A DNA stretch of 58,790 nt, filler included, from Sphacelaria rigidula (GCA_964200075.2; 10 parts of 10 records of this genome joined end to end with filler, not necessarily neighbours in it), one strand, 5' to 3'. Shown: positions 5,890-54,460, counted from the whole stretch's first letter. Program-made: numbers and translations. The notes: a model not told the origin generated them from the letters alone.

Positions 5890-5962
5890 AAAGGAATGAG
5901 TGCTGACTTGATATATATACAGAAAATAGTATGAGCGACCCCCCCCCCCCTCAGAAGGTCGA

Positions 5963-6029
5963 TCTCGAAAGGGATGCGTGGTCAATGGTCAAATGACTAA
6001 GGCAAGCAACAAATGAGTACGCCCCCCCC
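5963..6029 (+). mobile_element. 5'-truncated LINE 3' end with poly(C) tail and target-site duplication
   Basis: TCTCGAAAGGGATGCGTGGTCAATGGTCAAATGACTAAGGCAAGCAACAAATGAGTACG-C8, flanked by C(n)TCAGAAGGTCGA on both sides (5951-5962 and 6030-6041). Matches the 3' end of the long LINE at 37155-37227. Confidence 0.92.
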
Positions 6030-7317
6030 TCAGAAGGTCGAAATTAAAAAATGGGAGTGTGGGTCCAGGACTATTTTTGTTGGGCCCTCCTGTCGTACAC
6101 GTCATTTTTTTATGGGCCGCCATGTACTACTACCTGTCAGCAATAAGAACCGCTTTTACATTCATACGTTGACTGCATGTATTCTGCACGTGATAGTAGG
6201 GTATGATGTGACCTGCAGTCGTGAGCCGATCTGACCATGTACCCGGGTGCCTTCACCTGTATGAGGGAAGGCTCGGAGCAATGTTGGGCTTGATCATGTT
6301 GTGTGCATGGATTGAGACCGTGCAATCCCGTTATCCAATTCAGGCCGTCTGATTTGCACCACCTATTATATGTTACTCTTTGCTGACCCACCAAACCCTC
6401 AAGCCTTTTGCCTTCTCGGCGAATTTCGGTTTGCTTGGGTCGAGTTTCTGGTGTAGGAGCTACACGTCACCAATGCTAGAGTCAGCCCATATTGATTGCG
6501 AGAATTCGAGCGATACAAGAACTTGAGTGTCAAAATTGTCATTGAACACTCAGCTTGTCCTTTTACTTACGATGCTGTTTTTGAGACATGGGCAGTGGAA
6601 AGTCCTGATCCACAATCTAACTTAGCGCAAGGTGTGGATTGCCCCTCCCTGCCACCCATCCCGCGAGGTACTGGTTGGGTGAAACAACCTCTCCTGTCGG
6701 GTCTTTATGTTAGGAGGTTTGGAGTATGACGAGAACGCTTCGCAAAGTGTAAAGCGTGAGGCAAAGTTGTACTGCACTGTACAAGGAATTCTTGGTGTAC
6801 AGTATAGAGTACAGCACAGTGCCTGTTTACAGGGCAGTGAAGTTTGACCTCCAGCCTTGGCGGCGTCAATCGAGACGTACGGAGAACAGTACAGTACGTG
6901 TCCCTCCACAATCCTCCAGAATCGGTAAAGAAGAACTCGTTTCACCAGGTCAAATCCAACAGTCTGCATCTCGGACCACTCAGTCCTGCTCCAAAATTCA
7001 GAGTAGGTACATCATATGTCTCGCATTTCAAGGTACAGCGTGGTGCGGTGTTCTTCGTGTAAATATATTTTGTTGTCGAGCATTTGTATCGAAACTAGTA
7101 CCCCTGAACCTCCGATAGCTGCTGCTCTCTACTTGGGATTCGGCCGCGTATAGCGGGATTTCTTTGCCAAACCATTCATGACAACCGGTAAGGTCACTTT
7201 GGCTGTCAACCTGAGACATCCCGCCCTCCGAGTGTTGTACTGTGCTTCAAAGGTATGCAACAAATGAGTACGCCCCTTCCCCTCCCCCTCTCGCCCCCTC
7301 GTTTCGTATTCCATCAG

Positions 7318-11778: not shown

Positions 11779-11846
11779 TGTCTCGAAAGGGATGCGTGGT
11801 CAATGGTCAAACGACTCAGGCAAGCAACAAATGAGTACGCCCCCCC
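11779..11846 (+). mobile_element. LINE 3'-end fragment with C-tail
   Basis: Same ...GCAAGCAACAAATGAGTACGCCCCCC terminus, at a contig start. Confidence 0.9.
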
Positions 11847-15208: not shown

Positions 15209-15757
15209 CAGTAGTGGGCGGTCTAACTATTCATTTTGTGGCATTTTGTGCTTTTTTCGTAATTGACGATTTTCTTGGGCTCTATTTGCTTGCCACGGCT
15301 TATCACTTTGGACATCTGAAGACATCGGTATCCGCTCCACGTTCCAATATTTTTTTCTATCTTTACTCAATATTGAGTGACTTACGGGCTGATCGGTCAT
15401 CGGGGGTTCTGCCACGTTTCAGCCCAGATTCTTACTCTTCGATATTTCCATTCGATCGAGCCTGCCCCCATCATATTTGTGGAGAAATGTGCAGGTTCAT
15501 TTTTTTGAAATTCCACCTAATCATTGCCCTAGAGCCGCAAAACTGTGTTTCACGGGTAATAACACCCTCCTGATAAACGGGGTATTTACTCGTATCGCCC
15601 GATAACACCAACGGACACTGACTTGGTCAGTGTGTTTAGAGGATGATCTATATTTTGTACCAAAATCTACCGATGCTAGCAACTTCGACTTCTATCAAAG
15701 TGTAGTACGCGAGGAAAATCCCAAAACATCCCTGAATAATTAGACCGCCAACTACTG
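15209..15757. mobile_element. Tc1/mariner-type non-autonomous element, 549 bp, TA TSD
   Basis: TA-CAGTAGTGGGCGGTCTAACTATTCA ... TGAATAATTAGACCGCCAACTACTG-TA. An inverted homologue lies at 47860-48411. Confidence 0.88.
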
Positions 15758-16250
15758 TAGTATATATATATATATACATATATATTCTTAGTTCAGCGGC
15801 GGCGCCGCGCGTTACCGGGTTGGTCTCCAGTTTGCAGCGATATGCGCAAGTCGGGCTGATTCGGTAAACTTGATAAGTTATGGTGTGACATGCAAATGCG
15901 AGATTTACTGCTGGCTCAGCTCGTACATGGAAAGCATCGCGTCGGACCGATGAAGAATGATTTCCAGCGGATGGATCCGTTTTTTTTCCTTTCTGCAAAA
16001 CACCTGATAATTTCTACCGTTGAAAAGGAAGAGGACGTGAGAGGTGAAAGTAAATAATTGATTCGACACGAGTCAGCGCGAGGCAGGAGGATGATGGCGG
16101 CGACGACGATGACGATGGCGATGGCGATGACGGCGGCGTTAGTGCCCAACTTTCGCGGTTGTTTCGTCCTATTTCTATTCGTTTGTACCATGCTCTATTG
16201 GTGAGAACCAGGGAAATAAATAGCAGAAAATAAACAAAAAATTGCACATT

Positions 16251-17511: not shown

Positions 17512-17567
17512 GCCGGGGAGGGGGGTGTACTCATGATCATGTATGCCATAGTCATCAGACCATTGAC
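17512..17567 (-). mobile_element. 3' end of a second, related LINE subfamily with C-tail. Other copies at 38757-38800, 39411-39500 and 43036-43105
   Basis: Reverse complement GTCAATGGTCTGATGACTATGGCATACATGATCATGAGTACACCCCCC aligns with the main family's GTCAATGGTCAAACGACTAAGGCAAGCAACAAATGAGTACGCCCC. Confidence 0.75.
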
Positions 17568-17667: not shown

Positions 17668-17820
17668 TTTCTTCCATACAGTACACAAAAACCCTTTACA
17701 TATCTTATCCCCGCCCTGTTTCGCCGTCTCTCTGGCCACCATCTATCTCCTAGTCTAGCCATCGTTTTCTCCCGAGTGTCTAATGCATCGAAATATTTCA
17801 TGCCACCTTCGTTCACGTCC
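17668..17820 (-). mobile_element. 5'-truncated LINE fragment
   Basis: NEGGMKYFDALDTREKTMARLGDRWW matches the C-terminus of the LINE at 36950-37100. It is bounded by a G-run. Confidence 0.88.
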
Positions 17821-17989
17821 GGGGGGGGGGGTTATCTTCCATCACCGAACGTACCTCTTCTGAAGTGCGCGTCATTCTATTCCTTCTAAAATGTTTGCAA
17901 CAGCGACACTGTACAATACATCAAATACAGTCTCAGCCAGCCGACAATATCAAGAATTCAATAAAAATACTGACTACATACATGCATGC

Positions 17990-18152: not shown

Positions 18153-18948
18153 TAGGTCTCATGAACGAAGCAATGTTTTTCACTTGTTTCACTTCACTTT
18201 TTCGTCAAAATTGGAATGTTGCTGATGCTAGAATTTTCGGAGAAACCCGTTGTCAGTCTTGAAAATATTGATTTTTATTGTCTGACCTACTGTAATAATC
18301 CTGTGGGAACTAGACCCCCAGAAAGTGCTGATTTTTGTTCTTGTGAATCGGCACCATTTTCAGTCATTTCCAAGGGAGAATGATGTCGATTCACAAAGAT
18401 TCACAGAGATTCACACAACAAAAATCAGCACTTTAGCTCGCAAAGGGTTCAAGACAGCTACTTTCAACAATGATGGACATTCTTTTTTCCTCGCAAAAAT
18501 TCGGATGTTTCGGGGGGAAAGTAGACTCGTGAATGACACTCTTACACGAAAACTTCGAGGACAATTGGCGCGAAAGTGCTAGTCCAATGAGCGAAAGTGC
18601 TAGTCCAAGGTACTCGAGGAGGGATGGATAGTGATTAATCCCTTCACCCCTTGAGACAGCGAAATGAGTACGCCCCCCCCTTGAGACAGCGGACTCACTC
18701 GTCTCGAGCAAGGGGAAGGGGAAGGGGAAGGGGAGAAGTTAAGGAAATTTGATCTCACTTTCATTGATTCTTAAATTATTGCCATCATCATCATTATCAT
18801 TATAATGATTATTGAGTTATGGTTGTTGACTATTAGTCAGTATAATGATGAGATGGTGACGATGATTATGACTGTGATGATTGTGAGTATCGTTTTATGA
18901 TTCTATGATTACCATTACCATAAAAAGCGAAAGAAAGGGAGAACTCGC

Positions 18949-19408
18949 CTGGGCTGCTGCTCTCGCTGCTTCTGCTTTCGCTGCTTCTGCTTTCGCTACT
19001 TCTGCTTTCGCGGCTTCTGCTCTCGCTGCTTCTGCTTTCGCTGCTTCTGCTTTCGCTGCTTCTGCTCTCGCTGCTTCTGCTCTCGCTGCTTCTGCTCTCG
19101 CTGCTTCTGCTTTCGCGGCTTCTGCTCTCGCTGCTTCTGCTTTCGCGGCTTCTGCTTTCGCTGCTTCTGCTTTCGCGGCTTCTGCTTTCGCAGCTTCTGC
19201 TTTTGCTGCCTTTGCTTTCGCGGCCTCTGCTTTCGCTGCTTCTGCCTTCGCTGCTGCTGCTTTCGCTGCTGCTGCTTTTGCTGCTTCTGCTTTTGCTCCT
19301 TGGGCCTTTACTTCCGCTTCCGCTCCTGCTTTTGCTTCTAGGGGAGGTGGAGCGGCTGAACCGTTGTCCTTTGCTTTTGCTTCTGCTGGAGTCGAAGCAG
19401 CAGCCCTA
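18949..19408 (-). CDS. Exon 2 of an unknown protein, with 22 AEAA(K/R) pentapeptide repeats (15-bp minisatellite)
   Basis: TGCAG| acceptor in phase 2 matches the phase-2 donor of the exon at 22089-22510. Open frame. Ends at CAG|GCGAGT, a GC-type donor. Confidence 0.7.
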
Positions 19409-22510: not shown

Positions 22511-23098
22511 GTCCCAACATCAAATTTCATTAATTTTTTTAGTAAATACCCTAAACCATCGTTTTCTTCAGACGCGGACGCCTGCGAGAGTCGGGGCTCC
22601 CTCCAGATCTAAAGCGATCTAGATCACTTTCGGAGATGATCTGAGAGTTCCAGATCAGGTCGCGCGCGCTATTATTTTGATTCTAGAGTGGTACACTGAG
22701 GCCAAGTGATTCATAAATCCACATTTGGATCACGTAACGTCATCTGAAGTTGTTCAGATCAGATCCGGACCTGATCTGTTCGGTCTAGATCACTTTTCGG
22801 GTGATCTGCGCGTCATTGGTTTCATCATTTCTTGTTTGTTCATTACTCTTTTTGTGACTGGGCCGAGATTCCGAGTGATGCCGCCACAGCCCCCTCCCTC
22901 CGAACCAGCCCCGAAACTACCGCGAAAAAAATACCCATACGGCGAATGGTAGGTGGTTTCAGACTTCATCAAGCCCCTCATATGTTCGACAATGGTGAAA
23001 ATGACCCCAACCGTATGAGTTCCCAGCTAATCGGTGTGCTCGGATTTGGTCATTTTGGTTCACATGTAGATTTTGCCTCCTCACACTAGCCGTTTGAT

Positions 23099-23178
23099 GG
23101 GGGGGGGGGCGCGTACTCTTTTATTGCCTGCCCTAGTCGTTTGACCATTGACCACGCATCCTTTTTGGGACGGAGCAC
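23099..23178 (-). mobile_element. LINE 3'-end fragment with C-tail
   Basis: G-run followed by CGCGTACTC..TTGCCTGCCCTAGTCGTTTGACCATTGACCACGCATCC. Confidence 0.85.
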
Positions 23179-23632
23179 TTTGGGGGGTAAGCGATCGCGG
23201 CATTACTCTCCTTCAGACCCGCACTCAGTGGTACCGCACTTCATGGGAGGTTCGATCTGGAATTCCACTAAAAATTACCGTGACTATAAACACGCATACA
23301 CGAAATAAATAAAAAATAAAACCCTGAATAAGAAGCCAGTCAACGCCAAAGCAAAAAGCAGACAGCAAGAGGTGGGACAAAACCAAATGAAACCGTTGAA
23401 AAAAAAAAAAAGGAAAAAAAAGTGACGTTTCCCGCCCCCACTAAAAAAAAATAAAANNNNNNNNNNNNNNNNNNNNNNNNNNNNNNNNNNNNNNNNNNNN
23501 TTAATTAATTAANNNNNNNNNNNNNNNNNNNNNNNNNNNNNNNNNNNNNNNNNNNNATTTGGATTTACGTGAATATTTTGCCTCCCAAAACCATGCACTT
23601 TTGGGGGGGGGGGCTATGGTAGAAAGTGTCAT

Positions 23633-26600
23633 TCGAAGCTATCATCGTGGGCCTGGCCTGGGTACGGGAGGCGGAGTCCTGCACCACACAAGCATGGACG
23701 CGCATGATACATGCGGGGAAGCGGGTGCGCTACGACGACCAGTGCTTCAAGCTACCATCGTTCGACTGGACCGGGTAAAAAAGGTCGAGTTCTGCGCCAC
23801 ACCCGCATGGACGCGCATGATCCATGTGGTGAAGACGATGCGCTACAAAGGTCGGTGCTCCGAGCTACCACCGTTCGCATGACCCATCTCGGAAAGGCGT
23901 AATTCTACGCCACATACGCCTGGATGCGCATGATCCATGAGGTGAAACAGGTGCTCTGCAACGATCGAGGCTCCATGTTACCATCGCTCGCCTAGCCCGG
24001 GTACGGGAAACGGAGTTCTGCGCCACACATGCCTGGACGCGCATAATACATGCGGTGAAACGGGTGCGCTATAAAGCTCGGTGCTCCAAGTTACCATCGT
24101 TCGCATGGCTCAAGTACGTGAAGCGAAAATCTGCGCCGCACACAGCCTGGGCGCCCATGGTTCATGCGGTAGACCGTGTGCGCTACAAAGATGGGGGCTC
24201 CGAGCAACCATCGTTCGCGTGACCAAGGTCAGAAAGGCGGAGGTCTGCGCCACACACGACTGCACGCGCATGATCCATGCCGTAAGCCCGGTGCGCTACA
24301 AAGATCAGTGCTCCAAGCAATCATCGTCCGCCTGACCTGGGTCAGGAAGGCGGAGGTCTGAGCCACATACGCCACACGAGCATGATCCATGCGGTGAATC
24401 AGATGTGCAACGAATATCAGTTCTACGAGCCACCATCGTCCGCCCGACCCGTACGGGAAGGCGGAGTTCTGCGCCACACACGCCCTGACGCGCATAATAC
24501 ATGCGATAGGCGGGTGCGCAACAAAGCTCGGGGCTCCAAGCTACCATCGCGCGCTCGGCCCGTGTCGGGAAGGCGGAGTTCTGCGCCACACACGCCTGGA
24601 CGCGCATGATGCATGAGGTGAAACAGGTGCGCTACAGAGATCGGTGCTCCAAGCTACAATCGTTCGCCTGGTCCGGGTACGGGAGGCGGAGTACTGCGCC
24701 ACACACGCCTGGACGCGCATGATTCATGAGGTGAAACAGGTGCGCTACAGAGATCGGTGCTCCAAGCTACAATCGTTCGCCTGGTTCGGGTACGGGAGGC
24801 GGAGTACTGCGCCACACACGCCTGGACGCGCATGATACATGCGGTGAAACGGGTGCGCTACGAAGATTGGTGCTCCAAGCTACCATCATGGGCCTGGCGC
24901 GGGTACGGACGGCGGAGTACTGCGCCACACACGTCTGGACGCGCATGATCCATGCGGTGAAACGAGTGTGCTACGATGATCGGTGCTCCAAGCTACCATC
25001 GTTCGCCTGGCCCGGGTACCAAAGGCGGAGTACTGCGCCACACAAGCATGGACGCGAAAGATCCATGCGGTGAAGCGGGTGCGCTACGATGATCGGTGCT
25101 CCGAACTACCATCGTTCGCCTGGCCCGTGTACCGAAGGCGGAGTACTGCGCCACACAAGCATGGACGCGCATGATCCATGCGGTGAAGCGGGTGCGCTAC
25201 GACGATCGGTGCTCCGAACTACCATCGTTCGACTGGACCGGGTAAGAAAGGCGGAGTACTGCGTCGCACACGCATGGACGCGCATGATCCATGCGGTAAG
25301 CCCGGTGCTCTACAAAGATCAGTGTTACAAGCTACCATTGTTCGGCTGGCTCGGGTACGGGAAACGGAGCACTGCGCCACACACGCCTGGACGAGCATGA
25401 TACACGCGGTGGAACGGGTGCGCTACGAATATCGATGCTCCAAGCTTCACTTGTTCGTCTGGCCCCGGTACGAAAGGCGGAGTTCTGCGCAACATACGCC
25501 TGGACACGCATGATCCGTGCGATGAACCCGGTGCGCTACGAAGATCGGTGCTCCGAACTACCATCGTTTGGCTGGCCCGGGTACGTAAGGCGGAGTTCTG
25601 CGCCACACACGCATGGACGCGCATGATCTGTGCGGTAACCCTGGTTGTGCAGCAAACATTGGTGCTCCAAGTTAGCATCGTCCGCCTGGCCCGGGTCAGG
25701 AAGTCGGAGTTCTACGCCACAAACACCTGGCTGCGCATGATTCATATGATATACCGGGTGCGCTACAAAGATCGGTAACATCGGTGCTCCAAGCTAGTAT
25801 GGGCCCCCTGGTCCGGGTACGGAAGTCGGAGTTCTGCGCCACACACGCCTGGCTGCGCATGATCCATGCGTCTAATCGGGTGCGCTACAAAGATCGGTGC
25901 TCCAAGCGACCATCATCCGCGCAAATCGGGTCACGATGGTGGAGTTCTGTGCCACACACACATGGACGCGCATAATCCATGCGTCTCATTGAGTGCGCAA
26001 CAAAGATCGGTTCTCCAAACTACCATGGTTCGCCTGCCCCGGGTACAGAAGGCGGAGGTCTGCGGCACACAAGGCTGGATACGCATGATCCATGCGGTGA
26101 ACCCGGTGCGCTACAAAGATCGGTGCTCCGAGCCACCATCGTTCGCCTGGCCCGGGTACGTGAGGAGGAAGTCTGTGCCACACACACCTGCTCGCTCATG
26201 ATCTATGCGTCTAACCGGGTGCGCTACAAACATGGGTGCTCGAAGCTACCATCGTTCGCATGGTCCGGGTACGGAAGTCGGAGGTCTGCGCCACACACGC
26301 CATACGCGCATGATCCATGCGATATACGGGGTGCGCAACAAAGATCGGTGCTCGAAGCGACCATCGTCCGCGCAGATCGAGTCACGACGGTGGAGTTCTG
26401 TGCCACACACGCCTGGACGCGCATGATGCATGCGTCTAATCGGGTGCGCTACAAAGATCGGTGCTCCAAGCTACCATGGTTCGCCTGCCCCGGGTACAGA
26501 AGGCGGAGTTCTTCGCCACACACGCCTGGACGCGCATGATCCATGCGGTGAACCCGGTGCGCTACAAAGATCGGTGCCCCGAGCCACAACCGTTCGCCTG

Positions 26601-27680
26601 GCCCGGGTATGTAAGGCGGAGTTCTGCGCCACACACGCCTGCACGCGCATGATCCATGCGTCTAACCGGGTGCGCTACAAACATGGGTGCTCGAAGCTAC
26701 CATCGTTCGCATGGCCCGGGTACGGAAGTCGGAGGTCTGCGCCACACACGCCTGGCTGCGCATGATCCGTGCGGTAAACCGGTTGTGCAGCAAAGATCGG
26801 TGCTCCAGGCTACCATCGGCCGCCTGGCCCGGGTACGGAAGTCGGAGTACTGCGCCACACACGCCTGGATGCGCATGATGCATGCGGTGAAACGGGTGTG
26901 CTTCAAAGGTGGGTGCCCCAAGCTACCATCGTTCGGCTGGACCGGGTAGGGAAGGCGGAGTTCTGTGCTCCATACGCCTGGATGCGCATGATCCATGTGG
27001 TACACCAGGTGTGCTGCAAGCATCGGTGCTCCAAGCTACTATCGTTCGGCTCGACCGAGTCGGCAGGCGGAGGTTCGCACCGCACATGCCGAGATGCTCG
27101 AGATCCATGTCGTGAACGAGGTTTGCGGCGAGGATCGGTGATTCAAGCTACCATCACTCGCCTGACCCGGGTACGGAAGGCGGCGTTCTGCGCCACACAC
27201 GCCTGGACGCGCAAGATTCGTCTGGAAAACAAGTGTGCTGCATGTATCGGTGCTCCAAGCTACCATCGTCCAGCTCGACCGGGACGGGAGGGCGGACTTC
27301 TGCGCCACACACGCCTGGACGCGCAAGATCCATGCGGTCAACAAGATGTGCTGCAAAGATGGATGATGAAAACGTACCATCGTTTTGCTCGACCAGGACG
27401 GCAGGGTGTAGTTTTGAGCCACAGACGCCTAGACGTGAAACATCCATGTGTGAGACTATCAGCTGTAAGCATCGGTGCACCGAGCTACCATCGTTCGCTT
27501 GGCCCGGGTTGGGAAGGCGGAGTTCTGCGCCACACACGCCTGGACGCGCATGGTCCATGCGGAAAACCGGGTGTGCTGCAAAGATCGGTGCTCCAAGCTA
27601 CCATCGTTCGACTGGCCCGTGTACCGAAGGCGGAGTTCTGCGCCACACACGCCTGGATGCGCAAGATCCATGGGGTATAC
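23633..27680. repeat. Satellite array of ~36 copies of a 113-bp GC-rich monomer
   Basis: Unit approximately GCTACCATCGTTCGCCTGGCCCGGGTACGGAAGGCGGAGTTCTGCGCCACACACGCCTGGACGCGCATGATCCATGCGGTGAAACGGGTGCGCTACAAAGATCGGTGCTCCAA. Period 113 (e.g. 24644 and 24757). Confidence 0.97.
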
Positions 27681-28062
27681 CGGGAGAATTGAATTCTTCG
27701 TGTCCACACCAAATCTCCGAATTATGGTTCCATGTTTACACTTGCTGGTAGCTATTGACAACTACTACACGCCATACAAATTTGGATTTCGATCACCGAA
27801 ATGTTGGGGTCCCAGATGAAAAACCCATTTTGGGATCCAATCGGATCACCTATATTCCCCAGAGTTGTTTCTTCACCTAGGATCCCAACATATCGGTTAT
27901 CAGAATCCAAATTTGCATGACGTGTAGTAATTATCAATAGCTACCAGAAGGTAGAGGAATGGAAATATATTTCGGAGATTTGTTGGGGGTACGAAGATTT
28001 TAATTCTCCGGGTTCTCATCCTCGATAAAAACTCCCTCCCCGATTTGTAAAATCCCGTGTTT
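27680..28062. mobile_element. Foldback element, left end truncated, same family as 16251-16685
   Basis: CACTTGCTGGTAGCTATTGACAACTACTACACG... inverted arms. Right terminus ATTTGTAAAATCCCGTGTT. Confidence 0.85.
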
Positions 28063-35400: not shown

Positions 35401-35704
35401 GGGATTGATTCGTACGATTCGAATCAAATATACTAAAACCAAGTAATTTTCAGACGAATCATTATTTGTCCGACCCTTGAAAGAGTTACTTCTTTTTCTG
35501 TTATCGCCACTTCTAGGGGGGGGGGGGCATGTTGTGAGACCATGTCGAAAGCAAGTGTATGAAGCATGAGGCTGTCGGACAAGCCATACGTACCACTGTG
35601 ACTTCATGAACCCGTTTTCACCTTGCGCTATCACCATGAGACAGTGATGCAGACCATGGTTTCATGTCACTACACTCCTACCGATTCATCACTCGATGAT
35701 CTAC

Positions 35705-37227
35705 AGACGAGGGAATACCGAAATATTTTGATATTTTACAAGGAATTGCACAAGGACGTACGTTATTACCCACTTTATTGAAGGTATTTTTTGATGACCT
35801 CATATTAGCGATAGAAGCAGAAAATCAAGGGGTCATAGTGCGTGAGGATAAGATTTCAGGTTTGATGTTCGCGGATGATTTTGTGGGTATTTCAGGAACA
35901 GCAGAATGATTGCAGGAACAAACGGAGGAGGCGCTAGAATACACTGGGGCACGGAGAGTGACAGCGAACGTCAACAAATGCGCGATGCTCATCTGTAACG
36001 ACGATAAGAAAAATCCGGTAAAGTTCAAATGGAAGTGGGGAGAAGAGGAACTGACTATCGTAGACCAGTATACATACCTTAGTGTAGAGATCTCAAGAAA
36101 CCGTTCTTGGGATGCACACATAAAAAAAGGAATAGAAAAGGGTGAGGCACAGATAGGAAGGATGGATGTGATCCTCAGAGACTCGCATACAGACACTAGG
36201 ATCAAGACATGTATCCTGATGAACGTGATTGTACCAAAGGTGGAATATGCAGGAGAAGAATGGGAGGGGAACGTGAAGTTGATGGAAGAAGTTGGAAACA
36301 GTACAGGTGGCAGCAGCCAAGAGAGTACTTGGATACTCTAAGACGACGATTAAATACAGTTTTGAGAGCAGAGTTGGGAACGTACTCACTTGAAACAGAG
36401 ACATGAGGAAATTGAGGTGGCCATATAGCGTTAAGAACATGCAGAGAATGAGATTGCCATATAGTTGACAGGGCTGTATGGAAGAAAAAACGAAAGGGAA
36501 GGCTGGGATAAGGTGGGATACAGAAGTCGAAAAAGTATGGAAGAAGATATCAATAGGAGGAAATCAAGACGAAATACTGTCCATAGGTGAAGGCGCGGGG
36601 TACAAGGCAAAGGTAGGAGATATGATAGAAATAAGGGGAAAAGGAGCGCTTAGACGCAAAGTAGACGAGGAAGAACGCCTGAAGATATACGGGGGGTTGA
36701 GAGAGGGGGTAGGGATGAGAACATATCTGCATCGCCCAATGGACGCGGCGAAAAATCTGAAACTGCGATTTCGGGTGGGGGACCTGGACCTGCCAGAAAG
36801 AAGAGATAGTTTTACCAGTAGTCGAGTGGAGGAGGAAGTAGGTGCATGGAATTACCCCTGTGGCAAAGCAATAGAGAGCAGAACTAATATAGTGGCAGAA
36901 TGTGATCAATACAAGGAGGAACGGGACGTGCTAGAGGGGGAAATGCGGGACTTGAAAAAAGGTGGGATGAAATCTTTTGATGCGTTAGACAGTAGGGAGA
37001 AAACGATGGCTATACTAGGAGGCAGATGGTAGCCACAAATGGCGGAACAGGACGGGGATAAGATATGTGAAAGGATTTTGTGCAATGTATGGAAGAAACG
37101 TAATGAGCGCTGGAGGGTTGGAGGTCGCTCCATTAGGAATAGGAACGGTGCTTCGTCTCGAAAGGGATGCGTGGTCAATGGTCAAACGACTAAGGCAAGC
37201 AACAAATGAGTAAACCCCACCCCCCCT
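35705..37227 (+). mobile_element. Non-LTR retrotransposon (LINE), 5'-truncated and degenerate: RT C-terminal half, CCHC-like domain and C-tailed 3' end
   Basis: QGIAQG..L.PTL, GLMFADDFVGIS, NVNKC and YTYL motifs. YPCGKAIESRTNIVAEC zinc-knuckle-like segment. Ends AACAAATGAGTAAACCCCACCCCCC. Confidence 0.93.
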
Positions 37228-38616: not shown

Positions 38617-40384
38617 CTGAGATTGATTGCGGGTAACAAGTGGGGTGATCGAGGAAGAGACCGGGTGCATCCATGCAAGCAACCGGGGAATAAGCCAGAA
38701 AAGCAGGGCGGAACGAGAGGGGGGCGGAGGAGATGGGAACGCGTACTGTAGCCGATTGGGGGTGTACTCACGATCATGCATGCCACAGTCAAAAGATCAT
38801 TGTAGCTGGTGGGGGGGGGTGGGAGGAAATGTATAGAATAAAAACAAGAACTCGAGGGCCTTGTTGAGAGAAGACAAAAAAAAACTGTGATTCATGAATT
38901 TATGGACTGCTCCTTCAGAGGGATGCTCCTTCCGTGCGAGAGCTGCCTGAGCACAGTGATCCGTAGTGAGCGACGGCAATTCTTCGTGCCAAGTACCTAC
39001 CTTGTGCTTAGGTGAAGTGAACGGACGGATGCAAGAGTGGGAAAGATAAAAATATAATTGGGCAAGGAGTGACTGCTTACGACTGCACCAAGGGGCGCAA
39101 AACGCCTTGTAGTAATACCACATTACCTACCGTTACTCACGTTTTTTTCAATATATATATATATATGTTTCATTTTTTATAGGGTAAAATAGAATGCACG
39201 GAACGCACACAGACACAAGACACAGGTACACATAGTTGGTGCATCAAAATATCCCATTAGACGTACCGACTAGAGAGAGAGAGTCGGGGTCCTTCGATGT
39301 TCCCCCGCGCCCTCTCGAGGACACCTGGCCGGAAAAGCAGTCGAAGCAGATCCAAACAGACAACGGTGAACGCGATGAACAAGAACGATATACGAGCCAA
39401 TTTTTACATCAGGAGGGGGGGGAGGGGGTGTACTCGTATGACTCTGCATGAAGTAGTCATGAGACAATTGACACCGCATCCCTCGAGAGCCGGGACGGAG
39501 CACGGCGGGTTTTCACCGGACCAGGCTCGCTATCACCAAGCGCGAAGCATGAGAAGGGGGGAAGGGCGGGCTCCCGCAATAATTTATTTCCCAAGCTACT
39601 TCGATCCAGATCCTCACCGTGGGCGTGCGACCACTCGTCTGTATCTCGTACCTGCGCTGTGTCCTGCTGCCTCTGCGTCCCTTCTCAGGTAAAGTTCATG
39701 AGTTATTGAGAGTGCTTCAGAAGAGGTCACAGCACTTCGGTAGGAGACTGCTTTGTGTAAAGTACGAATCTGCCACCTAAGATACTGAATCATCTGCTAG
39801 ACCTGTGCTTTGTGGCGGAGAGGGATGCTGCGGCTGCAGTGTCGATACACTACAAAGTAATCTATCGGCAAACTGCTTCCCCTATCATGGTGTTTCTCAA
39901 TCGTGTAGCCTCACTCTTGCTCCTCTACAAAACTGCAGGCCATACGACTGCGACAAGTTTGATTACGGACCTCAAGGTATAAGCTGCCACCCACGGTGAA
40001 TTTCACAAGAACAGGTGAGGCAGTGGAACTGTCCAGTGGTACAAAACGTATTTGATACTTCAAACACGCACACACACACACGCGCGCGCGCGCGCGTGCG
40101 ATGCACAAGCACTATTTCTGAGACTTCATCAACCCCTCCCTCATGAGACTGTGATTGGATCATGACCCTTGTTGTCTCTCACTTCACTACTCCCGTGCTT
40201 AACCCTTATCTTATAGGAGGGGGGGAAAGGTGTGTGTGTGTACCCACTATCATGGATGCCATAGTTACGTGACCATCGACCTCGCATCCCTACAAAGCCG
40301 GGACGGGACGGGGCGGCGAATTGAAAACCAGCGTAGGACTGGAATCCGACACGGAAAAGTACAAGGGGTAAAGTGAAACTCCCA

Positions 40385-42292: not shown

Positions 42293-44036
42293 TTTTTCAT
42301 GACGTCAGTAGTACAGTGAACGTTACTGATATTCGTCGCGGTGTGGGAATGCTGATCCAATTCGCGGCATCTCAAACTGTCAGGCGCACCCCTGGGGGAG
42401 AGTCGGGTTAGTTGATGCTTCGAGACTGCGGATTCGTCCCGTGGGAGGAGAAACGTCGAAGAAAGGAGGGAAAATGAAAATAAAAATAAATAAACACGAA
42501 TTTAGTTCAGATGAAAGCTGGGGGGGGGGGGGGGGGGGGATTACCCTTAAAAAAGGGAGGGGGATACCCTTGAAGAAGTACAAGGGGGAAGAGAAGGTGT
42601 ATGCCGGGAGGTAGCCNNNNNNNNNNGGAGAGGGAAGAAAGAAAAGAAAAAGAAAAAAAAAAAAAAAAAAAAGAAAAAAAGGGTTGGTGGTGGGGGAGGG
42701 GGGGGGGGGGGGGGGGGGGGGGGAATACTCTCTAATAAGGGAGTGAGAACACGCTTGACATGCTCAAGGGGGTACATGATGTCTATGCCGAGAAGCAGCC
42801 CATGTATGAAATTTCTGGGGCATATTCAATGTATAAATTGCGGTACATGTGCTCCGGGACGAGAGGGCTCGGTCTCACAATCCTCGAGGGCACCTGCCAC
42901 AAAACCTCGTCTCACCCGACAAAAGAAAATGTACAAAACAGACTACCACAAACGGAATGCGCTACGCTAAGGAATAAAACAATCTTCGACTCGTGATTAA
43001 TAATAGTCGATAACAGTAACAAAATTTGCTCACGGAGGGGTGGGGGTACTCGTGATTTTGCATGCCATAGTCATAAGACCACTGACCTCGCATAAGACGT
43101 GCGACGGCGATATTCCCGGTGTGGGGGCCAAAAACTGGGTCAAATGTTCCAAAACTGAAAAATCTAGTCAAAAACAAGAACCAACCGCAAGAAACCGTCT
43201 CGCAAACATCAAATTGGCGAACCACGCAGAGCATTAATATTGGTCGTGCCTTTTTGGGGGGAGGGGGCAGGCGTACAGTTTCCAGTTCATTCTCGCCGTT
43301 CAACTTCCGCAATTGATAGCAGAGCAAGTGTCTCAAACATTCGGGCGGGCTACCGAGAGCATGAAGTGTAGACGATTTCATTGGCAAAACGCGTACTGCG
43401 TACAGTACGAATATTCTGTCATTTGCATCAGAGAATACATTCTACATTGTGCGCAGGACACAGCTTTACTAATGCAATCTGAGTATTGTCCAGGGTGTAA
43501 AATCTGCACCCCCTTGGGTTTTTGCCACTCTTGAGTCATACCAGTGTTTGTGTCTCGCTGCTGTAGATGCAGAGCTAACGGATTGAGAGTTCCTGCCCAT
43601 GGACCGAGGTCCCGAGCTAGCTGAGTCGTAACCTGACTCAACGGAGATGCCTTTTGTACAACTCCCTCATACGAAGCCCCGGCGGGGGGAGCCTGCCCTA
43701 GCGTTTCCAAGTATCTGTATCGGCTCTGAGCCTGGCGTTTCCCCCATTCCCCACGGTTCTCTTCCATTCCATTCCATTATATTCTGTTATTTTTCGGTTT
43801 TCCTTTTCGCTCGAGTTTCTTTAGCGAGCATTTCCGCTTACTTGCTAAACTTGGGCACCTCGACCTCATGAAAAGCAACGTTAGGATTCGTAGAGGATCA
43901 CGTAAAGCGCGGCAATCGATTGATCCATCACTCAACCAGAAGAGCGAATTCAGGGTACAACACGCCCATCAAGAGCGATGTAACTCTTCTCCCCACTCCA
44001 GAAAAACCAAGCACCACTTCGGCTGGCTGCACCCAC

Positions 44037-46929: not shown

Positions 46930-47012
46930 GGGGGGGGGGGGCGTACTCATTTGTTGCTTGCCTTAGTCGTTTGACCATTGGCCACGCATCCCTTTCGAAA
47001 AGGAGCACCGTT
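46930..47012 (-). mobile_element. LINE 3'-end fragment with C-tail
   Basis: G-run followed by CGTACTCATTTGTTGCTTGCCTTAGTCGTTTGACCATTG. Confidence 0.9.
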
Positions 47013-47112: not shown

Positions 47113-48835
47113 AGTTTCATATTTTTCGCAGCGTCCATGGGGCTATGCAAACATGCTCTCATCCCTATCCCCTCTCGCAACCACCCGTATATCTTCAGGT
47201 GTTTTTCCTCGTCTACGTTGCGTCTGAGCGCTCCTTTCCTCCTTATTTCTATCATAACTCTTACTTTTGTCCTTAACCTATGGACAGTATTTTGTCTTGG
47301 CTTCCGCCCATCTCCTTTCACACTTTCTCGATCTCTCTACCCCACCTTATTCCAGTCTGCCCTTTCGTACTTTTCCTCCATACAGCCTTATCAACTATAG
47401 CTGGCAATCTCTTTCTCTGCATGTTCTTTAAGCTACATTGCCATCGCAATTTCCACATGTCTCTGTTCGTTTTAAGTGAGTACATTCCCAACCCTGCTCT
47501 CAAAACTGTATTACTTGTCGTTTTCGAGCATCCAAGTATTTTCTCAGCTGCTGCCACCTGTACTGTTTCCCACTTCTCCACCAACTTCACGTTCCCCTCC
47601 CATACTTTTCCTGCATATTCCAGCTTTGGTACGATCACGCTCATCAGGATACATCTCTTGATCCTGGTGTATGGGTGCGGGTCTCTGAGGATCACGTCTA
47701 TTCTGCTTATCTGTGCCCCACCCATTTTCTATTGCTTTGTTAGTGTGTGCACCCCAATAGCAGTATTTCCAGATCTCTACGCCAAGGTATGTATACTGGT
47801 CTACGATCGGCAGTTCCTCTGCTCCCCACTTCCATTTGAACTCTACCGGTTTTTTCTCACAGTAGTGGGCGATCTAACTATTTCGGGGTGTTCTGGGGGT
47901 TTTCCTCACGTACTACTCTTTAATAGAACTTGAAATTGCTAGCGTCGGTAGACTTCGGTACAACAAAGTAGATCATCCTCGAAACACAGCGCCCAAGCCA
48001 GTGTTAGTTGGTGTTATCGGGCGAAACGAGTAAATACCCCGTTCATGAGGAGGGTGTTATTGACCGTGAAACACAGTTTTTCGGCCCCAGTACAACGAGT
48101 GGGCGGAATTTCGAAAAAATTTAACTGCAAATTCCTTTACAAATATGATCGGGACGGGCTCGATTCACCGAAATTGCAGAAGAGTCAGTATCTGGGCTGA
48201 AACTTGGCAGGACCCCCGATGACCGGTCAGCCCGTAAGTCATTCAATATTGAGTACCGATGATTTTTTCTTCTTGGAATGTGGAGCGGATGAAAACATCT
48301 TCAGATGCCCGATGTGACAAGCGGTGGCAAGCGAAAAGAGCCCAAGAAAATCGCCAATTACAAAAAAATCACAACATGCCAAAAAACGATTAGTTAAACC
48401 GCCCAATAATATATCTTTTTTACAGAGGAGCACCGCGCATTTGTTGACGTTCGGTGTCACTCTCCATTTCCTAGTGTATNNNNNNNNNNCGCCTTGTCTA
48501 TCTGTGTCTGTCACCCTTGTGCTGTTCCTGAAATCCCCACAAAGTCATCCGCGAACATCAATCCTGATACCACATCTTTACCCACCTTGACCCCTTGCTT
48601 TGCTGCTTCTATTGCTATTATCAGGTCATTGATAAATACCTTGAATCGTGTTACGGTTTGACCTAAATCCTGCTTGCCCCTCGCTGATTTTTTGTTTTCC
48701 TCTTTTAGCATCGTTCTTACTCTATCTTTCAGAATCCTACAGAATGCTTTCCCTGCCGTACTCAGTAGCGTTATCCCTCTATAATTTCCTGGGTCAGCCT
48801 TGTCTTTTTTTTTAATGGACTCCTCCTTTTCTCCA
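47113..48835 (-). mobile_element. Degenerate LINE fragment (RT region) interrupted by a mariner-type MITE
   Basis: ADPGNYRGITLLS, SGLMFADDFVGISGT and VPKLEYAG..WEGN. Colinear with 35705-37227. Confidence 0.92.
47860..48411. mobile_element. Tc1/mariner-type MITE, inverted homologue of 15209-15757
   Basis: CAGTAGTGGGCGATCTAACTATT ... TAGTTAAACCGCCCAATAATA. LINE sequence is continuous across it. Confidence 0.88.
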
Positions 48836-48976
48836 CCTCTTGGGTGTGTACTCGTTTCCCCACATCCAGTTGTACAGCATAACCATCGTGGTCATCATTC
48901 CTTCTCCCCCGTACTTCAGAAAATCATTCAATTTCTCGTCTGCCCCTGCTGTCGGACCGTTGATGATACGATACAG

Positions 48977-50921: not shown

Positions 50922-51585
50922 GTGAGAAGAACCACGGTTGATTTGAGCTTTTTGTTCTGTACGTCCGTTTTCTTAGACATCCTTTGGACAATAGCGCATT
51001 AAAAAAATTGATTTTCAATCCTTTTTTTCAGGGGGATAGTTGCCTTGCTCTTTTTTTTTTTCCGGAGAGGGGAAAAAAACTTGAAAACACTGATTATGCA
51101 AACTTTCGACAGAAGAAAAAAAGTTGACTGATCATTTTTTTTATCATGTAATTTGGAGTACAAGACCTACGTTTTGGTCAGTTTGACATATCTAGGATTG
51201 ATGAAGATTTCTTGTAATCTATTATAGCTCATCACCGCTTGGATGCAGTCAGACATATTTTCAAAGCTGAGCAATATAGTCCCGTGAATATCATCGATAG
51301 GACTTAGAACACATTTGTGAACTCAGGCGTGAATCTAGTTGTTGTGTTTTCCCCCATTTTTTTGCCGGGAATGGCGCTAGACACACGGCACATACGCCGT
51401 GAACGAAAATCCGAAACCGGTTCGAGGACTTCGGAAACAAAAAAAAAACTGTTTCACGGATCGATCTTTTCCGAAATTTCCAATTATTTTGCTTCTTCAG
51501 TTCACTCCCATTTCTGAATTTCATGGAGAGCACGTTTGTTTAACGTTCCTGAGCTTCGGTAATTTCCGGCCCCCCTAAGCAAAGT

Positions 51586-51658
51586 GTTCCGTCTCGAAAG
51601 GGATGCGTGGCCAATGGTCAAACGACTAAGGCAAGCAACAAATGAGTACGCCCCCCCC
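51586..51658 (+). mobile_element. 5'-truncated LINE 3' end with C-tail and TSD
   Basis: Flanked by C(n)TAAGCAAAGT on both sides (51576-51585 and 51659-51668). Confidence 0.92.
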
Positions 51659-52779
51659 TAAGCAAAGTCCATGAGAGGTTGTTGCCCATGGTCCGCATTT
51701 TGCTAGCTGTCTGGTTCCCAACGAGAGACCCCCTATCTCAAGGACTAGCAACCTGTGCGTGCTCCACACTATTACAGCACATCCACGAACCCAGACCCGA
51801 CGACTAGAGCACCGACACGGCGCCCACGATAGCCAGCCTTCCCGTTAGAGGTTACAGCAGTGTCGGCCTCTTGACCGGCTCTCGATTTTGAGTAGTTTTA
51901 CCCGTTTTCATCATGATGGCAACAATCGAAAAGAATTATCCGCTTTTTGCGTGACTCGAGACAAGGGCGGGGGCGTTTATGGTAGGATAGGGTAAAGTTA
52001 GGAGTGCAACACGGAAAGCGATGTCCCTGTTTCACCTTGCGGATGATACCGTGGTTTCTTTGTAATGTAGCTCTGGTGATGCCCCACCACTCCGTTTTCT
52101 GTGTATGTTTTGCTCTTCTTCTGGATCCTTTTTTCTTCTCTCTTTTCCTTCCTACCCCTCCCCCCCCCCCCCCCCCCCCTCCCCCCCCTCTTCTCTTTTT
52201 TTTTTTTTCTTTTTTTTTTCTTTTTTTTCTTTCTCCCCCTCCCCTTTTTCTTCTTCTTTTTCCTTCCTTCCCCCCCCCCCCCCCCCTCCTTCCTTTTTTT
52301 TTCTTCCTCTTATTTCTTGTCTCACCTCGAGCTGTATCGGTGCTTGTGTCCCGCTTATGCAGAGCTAGTCAGCGAGATTTCCCGCTGTAATAGTCCAGTC
52401 CCCAGATAGCCTAGAATAGTTAGAGTCTCAATCCACTGCCACAGCCTTGCTTTTGTTCGCCTTCCTTTTTCCAACTTGTGCCATGGGCCTGTTCGCTTTT
52501 TACGCGGATTCGGAACTACTACTCGTACTCGTGTAATCATGTTTTCCTTTGTCTTTGTTCTTTTCCCTTCTTCTGTATTTTTTTTTCTTCAGTTTATTGT
52601 GTTCGTCGTTCTCTTCTTTTTCATTTTCGCCCTTTTTCTGGAGTACAGTACTTTTTACCGTGCCTACGTCTGTCGCATGGCTATGCCTAGATTGCTGGCG
52701 GACCAGGTAATGTGCACCAGTCAGTCACATCAATCAAATGATCAAGTATCAATTCACGTGCGTTCTTTCGTGTTTTTAT

Positions 52780-52901
52780 CGTCTCGAAAGGGATGAGTGG
52801 TCCATGGTCAAACGACCAGGGTAAGCAACAAGTGAGTACCCCCCCCCCCCAAAGTGTGGAAGGAGATTGGCGGAAACCAAGACGAAATGCTGTCCATAGA
52901 A
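52780..52901 (+). mobile_element. LINE 3' end with C-tail, followed directly by internal LINE sequence
   Basis: ...GCAACAAGTGAGTAC-C(n), then AAAGTGTGGAAGGAGATTGGCGGAAACCAAGACGAAAT, which matches 36530-36585. Confidence 0.85.
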
Positions 52902-53001: not shown

Positions 53002-54460
53002 ATTTGTTGCTTGCCTTAGTCATTTGACCATTGACCACGCATCCCTTTCGAGACGGAGGGGGGGGGGGGGGGGATACGGTCACGGGATTGATGTTCGCAG
53101 ATGATTGTTGTGGAATATCAGAAACACCAGAGGGATTGCAGAAACAAATGGAGGAAGCACTAGAATACACTGGGAAATGGATAGTGGCAGCGAACGCAAA
53201 CAAGTGCGCGGTACTTGTGGGTAACGAGGACAAGGAGAACCCGACAAAGTTCAAATAAAAGCGAGGAGACGAGGAATTGCCAATTGTAGACCAGTATACA
53301 TACCTTGGCGTAGAGATGTCAATAATCTGTCCTTAGGATGAACACATGAATAAATCAATAGGAAAGGGTAAGACACAGATAGTCAAGATGGACGTGATCC
53401 TAAGAGACTTGCACCTCGATACTAGGATTAAGATATGTATCCTGATGAGTGTGATTGTACCGAACAGCAATATGCAGCAGAAGCACGTAAAGGGAACGCG
53501 AATTGAAGCAGCTGGAAACAGTACAGATGACAGAAGCTAAGAAAATCCTTGGATGCTCAAAAACGACAAGTAATACAGTATTGAGAGCAGAATTGGGAAT
53601 GTATCCCCTTGAAACAAATAGGGACACGATAAAAATTGAAATTGCAAACTAACGTAAGGAACATGCTGAGGACGAGACTTACAGCCGTAGCTGATATGGC
53701 TGTGCCAAAGAAAACGACGAAAGGGCAGACTGGAGTGGGGTGGGATAGCGTAGTGGAGAAAGTATGGAAGTACGTAGGAGGGAACCAAGACGGGATAATG
53801 TCCATAGGTGAATGCGGGGGGTGCGAGACTAAAGTAAGAGATATGATGGAAATACGGGAAAAAGAAACGCTGAGACGGGAAGTAGACGAGGAAGAGCACC
53901 TGAAGATATGCGGGGGGTTGAGAGGCGGGATACTGTAGATATGAAAAAATATCTACACGGCCCAATGGACCCCGCGAAACATTGAAAGCGCCATTTCGGG
54001 TGGGGCACCTGGACCTGCCGGAAAGAAGAAAGAGGTGTACCAGCAATCGGGTGGAGGAGGAAGGAGATGCGCAGATTTTACCCCTGTGGCAAACCAATTA
54101 ACCAGTAGAAGCCATATAGCGGTAGATTGTGAACTATATAAGAGGGAACAGGACGTGCTGGAGAGGGAAATATGGGAAGTAAACGATGATACAATGACAT
54201 CGTGTGGTACATTAGACAGTAGCGGGAAAACGATGGCTAGGAGATAGATGATGGCAGAGACAGAGACGGCGAGATAGGAAGAGGATAGGATCTTCGAGAA
54301 TTTTGTGCAATGCATGGAAGAAACATCATGAACGCCCAAATATTGGAGGTACCTCTATTAGGATAAGCAGCGGTGCCCCGTCTCGGAAGGGATGATTGGT
54401 TAATGATCAAATACCTAAGACAAGCAACACATGAGTAAGCCCCGCCCCACCCCCTCCCTC
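53002..54460 (+). mobile_element. Degenerate LINE (53072-54460, +) with an opposite-strand LINE 3' fragment (53002-53057) joined at a G-run
   Basis: DTVTGLMFADD, NANKC and SHIAVDCELYK. Ends CAAGCAACACATGAGTAAGCCCCGCCCC. Confidence 0.92.

Follow-up and report, generated by a model that had tools for sequence, protein, structure and literature searches.

L1 retrotransposons carry a poly(A) tail, nick their target at a T-tract and leave target-site duplications (TSDs) that start with A. Simple-repeat tails are known from other LINEs, among them the I factor, which ends in (TAA)n, and UnaL2. Homopolymer-C tails are unusual among LINEs.

In brown algae, elements with such tails are listed in the Ectocarpus transposon library (Genome Biol 2025;26:320, PMC12477816). 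In its Supplementary Material 3, RTEX-1_Ec32 (5867 bp) is annotated as 'single EN-RT ORF; (C)n 3'', with a 'C-rich' TSD and RTEX-4_NV as best blastp match, and RTEX-2_Ec32 is annotated as '(C)n termini/TSD'. The best blastp matches published there for (C)n-tailed LINEs are RTEX-4_NV and RTEX-1_BF. The same source lists RTE-1/2_Ec32 with '(CAA)n 3'' and CRE-1_Ec32 with '(CA)n 3'', and describes the non-autonomous elements RTEX-N1 and RTEX-N2 as having about 60 bp of 3' end in common and as elements that 'can be present in tandem'. RTE-X is given as the most abundant LINE group of the Ectocarpus genome, with 16,418 copies (PMC12477816). The terms 'C-rich' and 'insertion preference' are absent from the main text of that article, where the trait is annotated and its mechanism is not discussed. 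A further brown-algal RTEX element, RTEX-1 of Saccharina japonica, was reported to be recently active (Nat Commun 2015;6:6986, PMC4421812); the passages of that article dealing with the element do not mention its tail or target, and its likeness to the present family is one of description.

The first-pass annotation of the DNA analysed here had proposed a LINE family that ends in poly(C) and inserts at C-runs, and had added that it knew of no described family with this behaviour. The latter statement has to be withdrawn, as RTEX-1_Ec32 and RTEX-2_Ec32 are listed in the supplementary library of PMC12477816 with a (C)n 3' end and a C-rich TSD. The combination of (C)n tail and C-rich target is thus already on record in Ectocarpus, the LINE described below is a further member, and the remaining question is mechanistic. 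A literature search on poly-C-tailed retrotransposons yielded nothing relevant beyond the Ectocarpus library, and a fuller description may exist; among the literature on LINEs, no analysis of a self-targeting mechanism involving (C)n tails was found.

The window, meaning the whole stretch of DNA analysed (58,790 nt), consists of ten 5789-nt pieces joined by N44-TTAATTAATTAA-N44 spacers. The LINE copies therefore lie on distinct pieces, in agreement with the earlier claim that they come from independent contigs. Public-run data were used as contigs throughout (X1, X3, X5 and X6), so that all counts given are numbers of contigs and not depth or expression, and none of the runs listed as containing the stretch is recorded as RNA; X1, X3 and X5 are three public runs from two studies, and the best-matching run may be the window's own sample. 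When the LINE 3' end was searched for in further collections, two loci (L001 and L002) were found in public metagenome contigs and two (L003 and L004) in contigs of prokaryote genomes, while the scan of viral contigs gave 0 matches. L004 was dropped as a chance 20-mer match in a bacterial-looking contig. L003 is an algal LINE contig inside a bin labelled bacterial; this bin was searched and a single copy was found. An Rfam scan of the whole window returned 0 families. Among 31 window ORFs of at least 150 aa, Pfam detected no transposable-element domain, which is explained by every LINE copy being degenerate or short.

Three copies with clean TSDs were present in the window exactly as the first-pass annotation had claimed. 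Their components are as follows:

5939–5950, plus strand: upstream target sequence of copy 1, C12
5951–5962, plus strand: upstream TSD of copy 1, TCAGAAGGTCGA
5963–6021, plus strand: element of copy 1, the final 59 nt of the LINE, coding for ...SRKGCVVNGQMTKASNK, with the stop TGA at 6014–6016, then GTACG
6022–6029, plus strand: tail of copy 1, C8
6030–6041, plus strand: downstream TSD of copy 1, TCAGAAGGTCGA
18647–18691, plus strand: whole structure of copy 2, with C4 at 18647–18650 and TSD TTGAGACAGCG at 18651–18661
18662–18672, plus strand: element of copy 2, AAATGAGTACG, 11 nt, followed by C8 at 18673–18680 and TSD TTGAGACAGCG at 18681–18691
51570–51668, plus strand: whole structure of copy 3, with C6 at 51570–51575 and TSD TAAGCAAAGT at 51576–51585
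51586–51650, plus strand: element of copy 3, 65 nt, followed by C8 at 51651–51658 and TSD TAAGCAAAGT at 51659–51668

The TSDs of all three copies were perfect and 10–12 nt long. The upstream C-run measured 12, 4 and 6 nt in copies 1, 2 and 3, respectively, while the element's own tail was 8 nt every time; the downstream run is therefore set by the element and is not simply a duplicate of the upstream one. Both the upstream C6 and the C8 tail of copy 3 were covered without gaps by contigs of X1, X3 and X5. All three runs carried the copy 3 insertion, and no joint skipping it was seen among the 15 joints listed of 390. The C12 target of copy 1 is itself preceded by ATGAGCGA; the sequence ahead of it, within 5890–5950, reads ...AATAGTATGAGCGA and resembles the family end ATGAGTACG, so that this target run may have originated as the tail of a related, older element.

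The claim that the family is a LINE was borne out by the presence, in window copies, of the FADD box of a reverse transcriptase and of a tail domain of CCHC type, and by the combination of APE endonuclease and reverse transcriptase in full-length relatives. The FADD box lies in 35700–35909. The Pfam domain RVT_1 was weak in 53028–53258 (E 0.0028) and strong in the full-length relatives P0003 and P0004 (E 1e-31 to 2e-33), in each of which a single ORF encodes Exo_endo_phos, the APE endonuclease, ahead of RVT_1. The endonuclease domain, PF03372, was detected with E 3e-12 in P0003 and 8e-15 in P0004, and is known from these relatives, the window copies stopping short of that 5' region. The endonuclease region of P0003 retains the ExoIII-type motifs SWNV, QES, GDFN and TDH, and gave a weak ExoIII match in a PDB search (E 0.061); the reverse transcriptase matched L1 ORF2p (E 6.6e-21) and R2 (E 8.8e-20) in PDB. 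In the long window copies, which are interrupted by stops and frameshifts, a CX1CX8HX4C motif lies at the C-terminus. When 35700–36338 was translated with its one TGA as X, it showed 65% identity to proteins of 1328–1360 aa, and Ectocarpus proteins were matched too, as its nearest named relatives; the DNA was accordingly assigned to a brown alga, Ectocarpus itself or one of its relatives. By self-BLAST, 35705–37226 and 53063–54456 were 76% identical over 1.4 kb. The young window copies agreed with the C-terminus of P0003 in 17/17 terminal residues (tblastn). A non-LTR element is further indicated by the type of reverse transcriptase, by the N-terminal APE domain of P0003 and P0004, and, across the window copies, by constant 3' ends, variable 5' truncation and TSDs of variable sequence. 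Besides the three copies with clean TSDs, the following were recognised:

35705–37226, plus strand: longest window copy, from about P0003 residue 861 to the 3' end; degenerate (stops, frameshifts); tail CCCCACCCCCCC
53063–54456, plus strand: another long and degenerate copy, starting near P0003 residue 908 and reaching the 3' end; tail C-rich, degenerate
47113–48976, minus strand: LINE body, about P0003 residues 679–1213; cut by the piece start and split by a 554-bp putative MITE at 47858–48411
53002–53073, minus strand: short copy, truncated where the piece starts, with C16 directly at its 5' end (53058–53073, minus-strand reading)
46930–47012, minus strand: 3' end copy of 71 nt with C12 tail; cut by the piece end
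11780–11846, plus strand: 3' end copy with C7 tail; cut by the piece start
23099–23187, minus strand: older copy of 67 nt with 88% identity to the reference; tail C, G, C11; C6 lies 3 nt upstream of the 5' end
17668–17831, minus strand: internal LINE fragment; its 5' end at 17820 adjoins C11 (17821–17831)
52780–52901, plus strand: head-to-tail composite of a 61-nt 3' fragment, C10–12 and a second LINE copy starting at reference position 841
7250–7296, plus strand: 3' end copy of about 23 nt with degenerate C-rich tail; no TSD recognised
38759–38819, minus strand: B-subfamily 3' end ...GTGAGTACA followed by C5; degenerate TSD starting with a C-run, C9 upstream
17520–17567, minus strand: B-type 3' end ATGAGTACA followed by C6; cut by the piece end
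39415–39520, minus strand: B-type 3' end ACGAGTACA followed by CCCCCTCCCCCCCC
43020–43086, minus strand: B-type 3' end ACGAGTAC followed by CCCCCACCCCTCC

The 3' ends of the family were located by the motif ATGAGTACRCCCC, which with at most one mismatch occurred 11 times in the window against 0.07 expected, a number reached in 0/100 shuffles; further 3' ends were obtained by self-BLAST and by BLAST with the natural intact copy L002 as reference. In all cases (14/14), the 3' end was followed by a C-run, the first run measuring 4–12 C, with a tail of C, G, C11 at 23112; an A-run followed in 0/14. The outside copies L001–L003 likewise ended in a C-run (3/3), with lengths of 8, 10 and 13. These counts agree with the earlier claim of about a dozen copies ending in a C-run and never in poly(A), and, with 0/17 A-runs over the 14 window and 3 outside ends, the poly(A) tail of the L1 clade was not found. 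Among young copies, run lengths were 8, 7, 8, 12, 8, 8, 10 and 13; the tail of young copies comprises about 8 C, and the ORF ends within 5 nt of the element end. In the public-run contigs, ends diverging past the 8th C numbered 848 (X1), 436 (X3), 763 (X5) and 66 (X6), and the consensus beyond this position remained C-majority for 12–19 positions with an agreement of 0.40–0.46, which indicates many other copies with longer or C-rich continuations.

In the full-length relatives, the ORFs end in ...NGQMTKASNK, corresponding to ...AAC AAA TGA in the DNA. Since the stop TGA sits within the ATGAGTACG motif, the 3' UTR amounts merely to GTACG and the C-run. Judged by its sequence, the family is a LINE with a near-absent 3' UTR and an oligo(C) end. 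Read-through in the Ectocarpus protein P0006 yields ...EEYVPP, which agrees with GAGTAC followed by a C-run. Relatives P0011–P0047, about 40% identical overall, still share the terminal peptide ...GCVVNG..AMAA, and the B subfamily of the window keeps GTCAATGGTC...ATGAGTACA despite a one-base difference in reading frame. What is conserved in the last ~40 nt may be a cis signal and not the encoded peptide. Folding of the terminal 75 and 121 nt gave z = 0.03 and 0.01 relative to shuffles, with no indication of a stable 3' stem-loop; a hammerhead-like reading of CTGATGA/GAAA was considered by eye only and dropped.

C-runs were also enriched at the other side of the copies. A run of at least 4 C was found within 20 nt upstream of 8/11 visible 5' junctions, compared to 5.8% of 196,059 random windows (binomial 1.9e-8), and a run of at least 6 C upstream of 7/11, compared to 1.0%. 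The 11 placed junctions exclude 35705, 48976 and 39520, whose 5' borders are uncertain. The three junctions lacking an upstream C-run were 52780, 7250 and 53074, the last of which adjoins a G-run. Three of the eight C-run junctions (17820, 53057 and 52851) adjoin the run directly, with no unique TSD part, and in 153 X5 contigs a C-run and TGC stand immediately before 51588. TSDs were callable in the window in three clean cases and one degenerate case (38759–38819), and TSD calling at 7250, 35705, 53063 and 39429 found none. As the C-run precedes the unique part of the TSD, which in a scheme of target-primed reverse transcription (TPRT) marks it as original target DNA, the sites had C-runs before insertion. 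The claim of a pre-insertion C-tract is thereby supported by 3/3 clean TSDs together with the 8/11 junctions against background.

Head-to-tail arrangements were observed as well. A backward joint from 51658 to 51588 ('goes back 71') was present in 46 (X1), 17 (X3), 45 (X5) and 6 (X6) contigs, indicating head-to-tail arrays of a 3' unit of about 71 nt. The 5' ends of short copies clustered 59–71 nt before the 3' end (5963, 11780, 23178, 46942–47012, 51584, 52780 and 53057). This preferred 5' stop could reflect abortive cDNA, a mini-element or array amplification, and the direct tandem junctions without unique TSD could stem from template jumping or later array amplification instead of repeated insertion. 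The composite at 52780–52901 lacks both a TSD between its two copies and a C-run ahead of its first fragment, and resembles either a chimera formed by template jumping or an insertion onto an existing tail.

The preferred reading, to which a probability of roughly 0.68 was assigned, is that these are 5'-truncated copies of a brown-algal APE-type single-ORF LINE that integrates by oligo(G)-primed TPRT on oligo(C) RNA at C/G runs. Integration by TPRT at such homopolymer runs would begin with the endonuclease nicking the bottom strand in the G-run or at its edge. The exposed oligo(G) 3' end would pair with the oligo(C) tract of the RNA 3' region and thereby prime cDNA synthesis; pairing of a G-tract 3' end with C-tailed RNA, as the first-pass annotation had suggested, is plausible, and the transcript may end in C or be polyadenylated at a point further downstream. 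The top strand would be cut 10–12 nt downstream, giving TSDs of C(n)+N10–12, or alternatively still inside the run, giving copies with C-runs on both sides. The element's own tail would also serve as a target, whereby copies would stack head to tail. The sequences themselves show the identity as a LINE, the C tail, the C-runs at sites before insertion, the TSDs and the tandem junctions; the nick position, the G:C pairing at priming and the making of the RNA 3' end are inferred.

Pairing is dispensed with if endonuclease specificity alone places the nick exactly at the edge of the C/G-run, the primer lacks a terminal G and the C tract is copied wholly from the RNA. The window data fit a nick inside the G-run, with pairing, and a nick exactly at its edge, by specificity and without pairing, alike; a downstream run of 8 whatever the upstream length (12, 4 or 6) is what a fixed RNA tract predicts. 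Edge nicking, however, gives no reason for tail and target being the same homopolymer. A TSD made of C only requires a primer ending in G, and copies flanked by C-runs on both sides favour such a primer; C-only TSDs are implied by the three 5' ends adjoining a C-run together with the 153 X5 contigs, and the Ectocarpus annotation '(C)n termini/TSD' in the supplementary library of PMC12477816 says likewise. Nicking at the edge without pairing was thus regarded as unlikely. Poor odds were also given to an untemplated origin of the C tract or of its extension, by slippage of the reverse transcriptase on a short tract or by a terminal-transferase activity that adds G to primer or cDNA. The spread of tail lengths among intact or young copies, 7 to 13 C, would suit such an origin, as would the C-majority consensus running 12–19 positions past the 8th C in the run contigs, but extended C-rich sequence of this kind may represent target runs or tails stacked on one another. 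Moreover, a tail of exactly C8 is found in each of the three youngest insertions with flanking TSDs, and in L001 too, which fits an inherited templated tract.

It is very improbable that the element has no tail at all, ends at GTACG and owes each downstream C-run to duplicated target. Targets do carry C-runs, but the upstream and downstream runs differ in 3/3 clean cases (12 vs 8, 4 vs 8 and 6 vs 8) beside perfect TSDs of 10–12 nt, and a C-run stands at 17/17 3' ends. A sequencing or assembly artefact, e.g., poly-G/poly-C read tails fused to a repeat, might be suspected from the position of several copies at piece ends (11780, 17567, 47012 and 53002); its likelihood was considered negligible, as the runs are internal, bracketed by perfect TSDs and covered without a break by contigs from three runs belonging to two studies, C-runs also occur in three unrelated public assemblies, and the trait was independently reported for Ectocarpus in the library of PMC12477816.

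Compared to the Ectocarpus elements, the published RTEX descriptors (single EN-RT ORF, seen here in the relatives, (C)n tail, C-rich TSD and tandem occurrence) all recur, the likeness being one of description and not of consensus alignment. As for RTEX-1_Ec32 and RTEX-2_Ec32, the terminal peptide ...NGQMT(K/T)ASNK is common to the Ectocarpus relatives, and P0004 shows 92% identity to the LINE portion of an Ectocarpus protein. In contrast, the young window copies match P0003, which is 74% identical to the Ectocarpus-like P0004, and the window family may represent another subfamily or the element of another brown alga. Names of database protein matches were uninformative for clade; membership of the RTE-X clade is suggested indirectly by the published naming of the Ectocarpus relatives, the identity of P0004 and the published blastp matches.

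With L1, the family shares a homopolymer RNA tail complementary to the nicked 3' end, as oligo(G) priming would have it, TSDs that start with the tail base, and an APE and reverse transcriptase architecture. It differs from L1 in having C in place of A, a single ORF and a 3' UTR of 5 nt. Its tail is also short, at about 8 C, and is probably templated by the genome instead of being synthesised by poly(A) polymerase. RTE-1/2_Ec32, CRE-1_Ec32, the I factor and UnaL2 resemble it in having a simple-repeat tail other than poly(A), which is probably the initiation site, and a very short 3' UTR; unlike in these elements, the tail repeat of the window LINE has a unit of one nucleotide, and its target carries this homopolymer as well.

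Tail and target are here the same non-A homopolymer, which makes the family a clean natural test of LINE target choice set jointly by endonuclease preference and primer–template pairing. The points left for mechanism are how specific the endonuclease is for G-runs, what part the C tract plays, self-targeting, and why 5' ends cluster. The LINE is very abundant, its distinct 3' junction contigs numbering in the hundreds in each run, and for this reason it probably shapes the content of C/G-runs and tandem repeats in brown-alga genomes. A wider proposal, tentative and somewhat doubtful, is that a homopolymer-(G/C)-specific LINE may use its own oligo(C) tail as preferred landing site, that 3'-unit arrays would be built head to tail, and long C-runs and satellites seeded in brown-alga genomes, by repeated self-targeting and/or by template jumps from end to end onto C tails, along with abortive cDNAs ~60–71 nt long, and that the last ~12 codons (...GCVVNG..) would be conserved as a cis signal for the reverse transcriptase.

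Several other repeats were noted in the window. The element of 554 bp inside a LINE copy (47858–48411) has terminal inverted repeats CAGTAGTGGGCG..., a second copy of this type lies at 15212–15758 with TA on both sides, and the element resembles a MITE of the Tc1/mariner type. In the public-run contigs, it is missing from other LINE copies (joints from 47857 to 48412). A 15-nt tandem repeat occupies 18953–19301 (23 units at 90% match), and the Pentapeptide_4 match in the ORF at this position was rejected as a spurious product of the repeat. The window holds 68 C/G runs of at least 6 nt, several-fold above the prediction from base composition. C20 and C26, at 42520–42539 and 42698–42723 (minus strand), are preceded by the similar sequences ...CCCTTTTTTAAGGGTAAT and ...CCCTTATTAGAGAGTATT. 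A 113-nt satellite extends over 23636–27684 (35.8 units at 77% match) and is also present at 2727–2965, 22888–23110 and 23557–23632. Its end runs into ...CTTTCTACCATAG and C11 (23603–23613, minus strand), and related units at 2729 and 2937 end in ...CTTTCTACGATAG and C10–12. This satellite may constitute a second, unrelated-looking repeat family ending in a C-run, possibly a non-autonomous partner.
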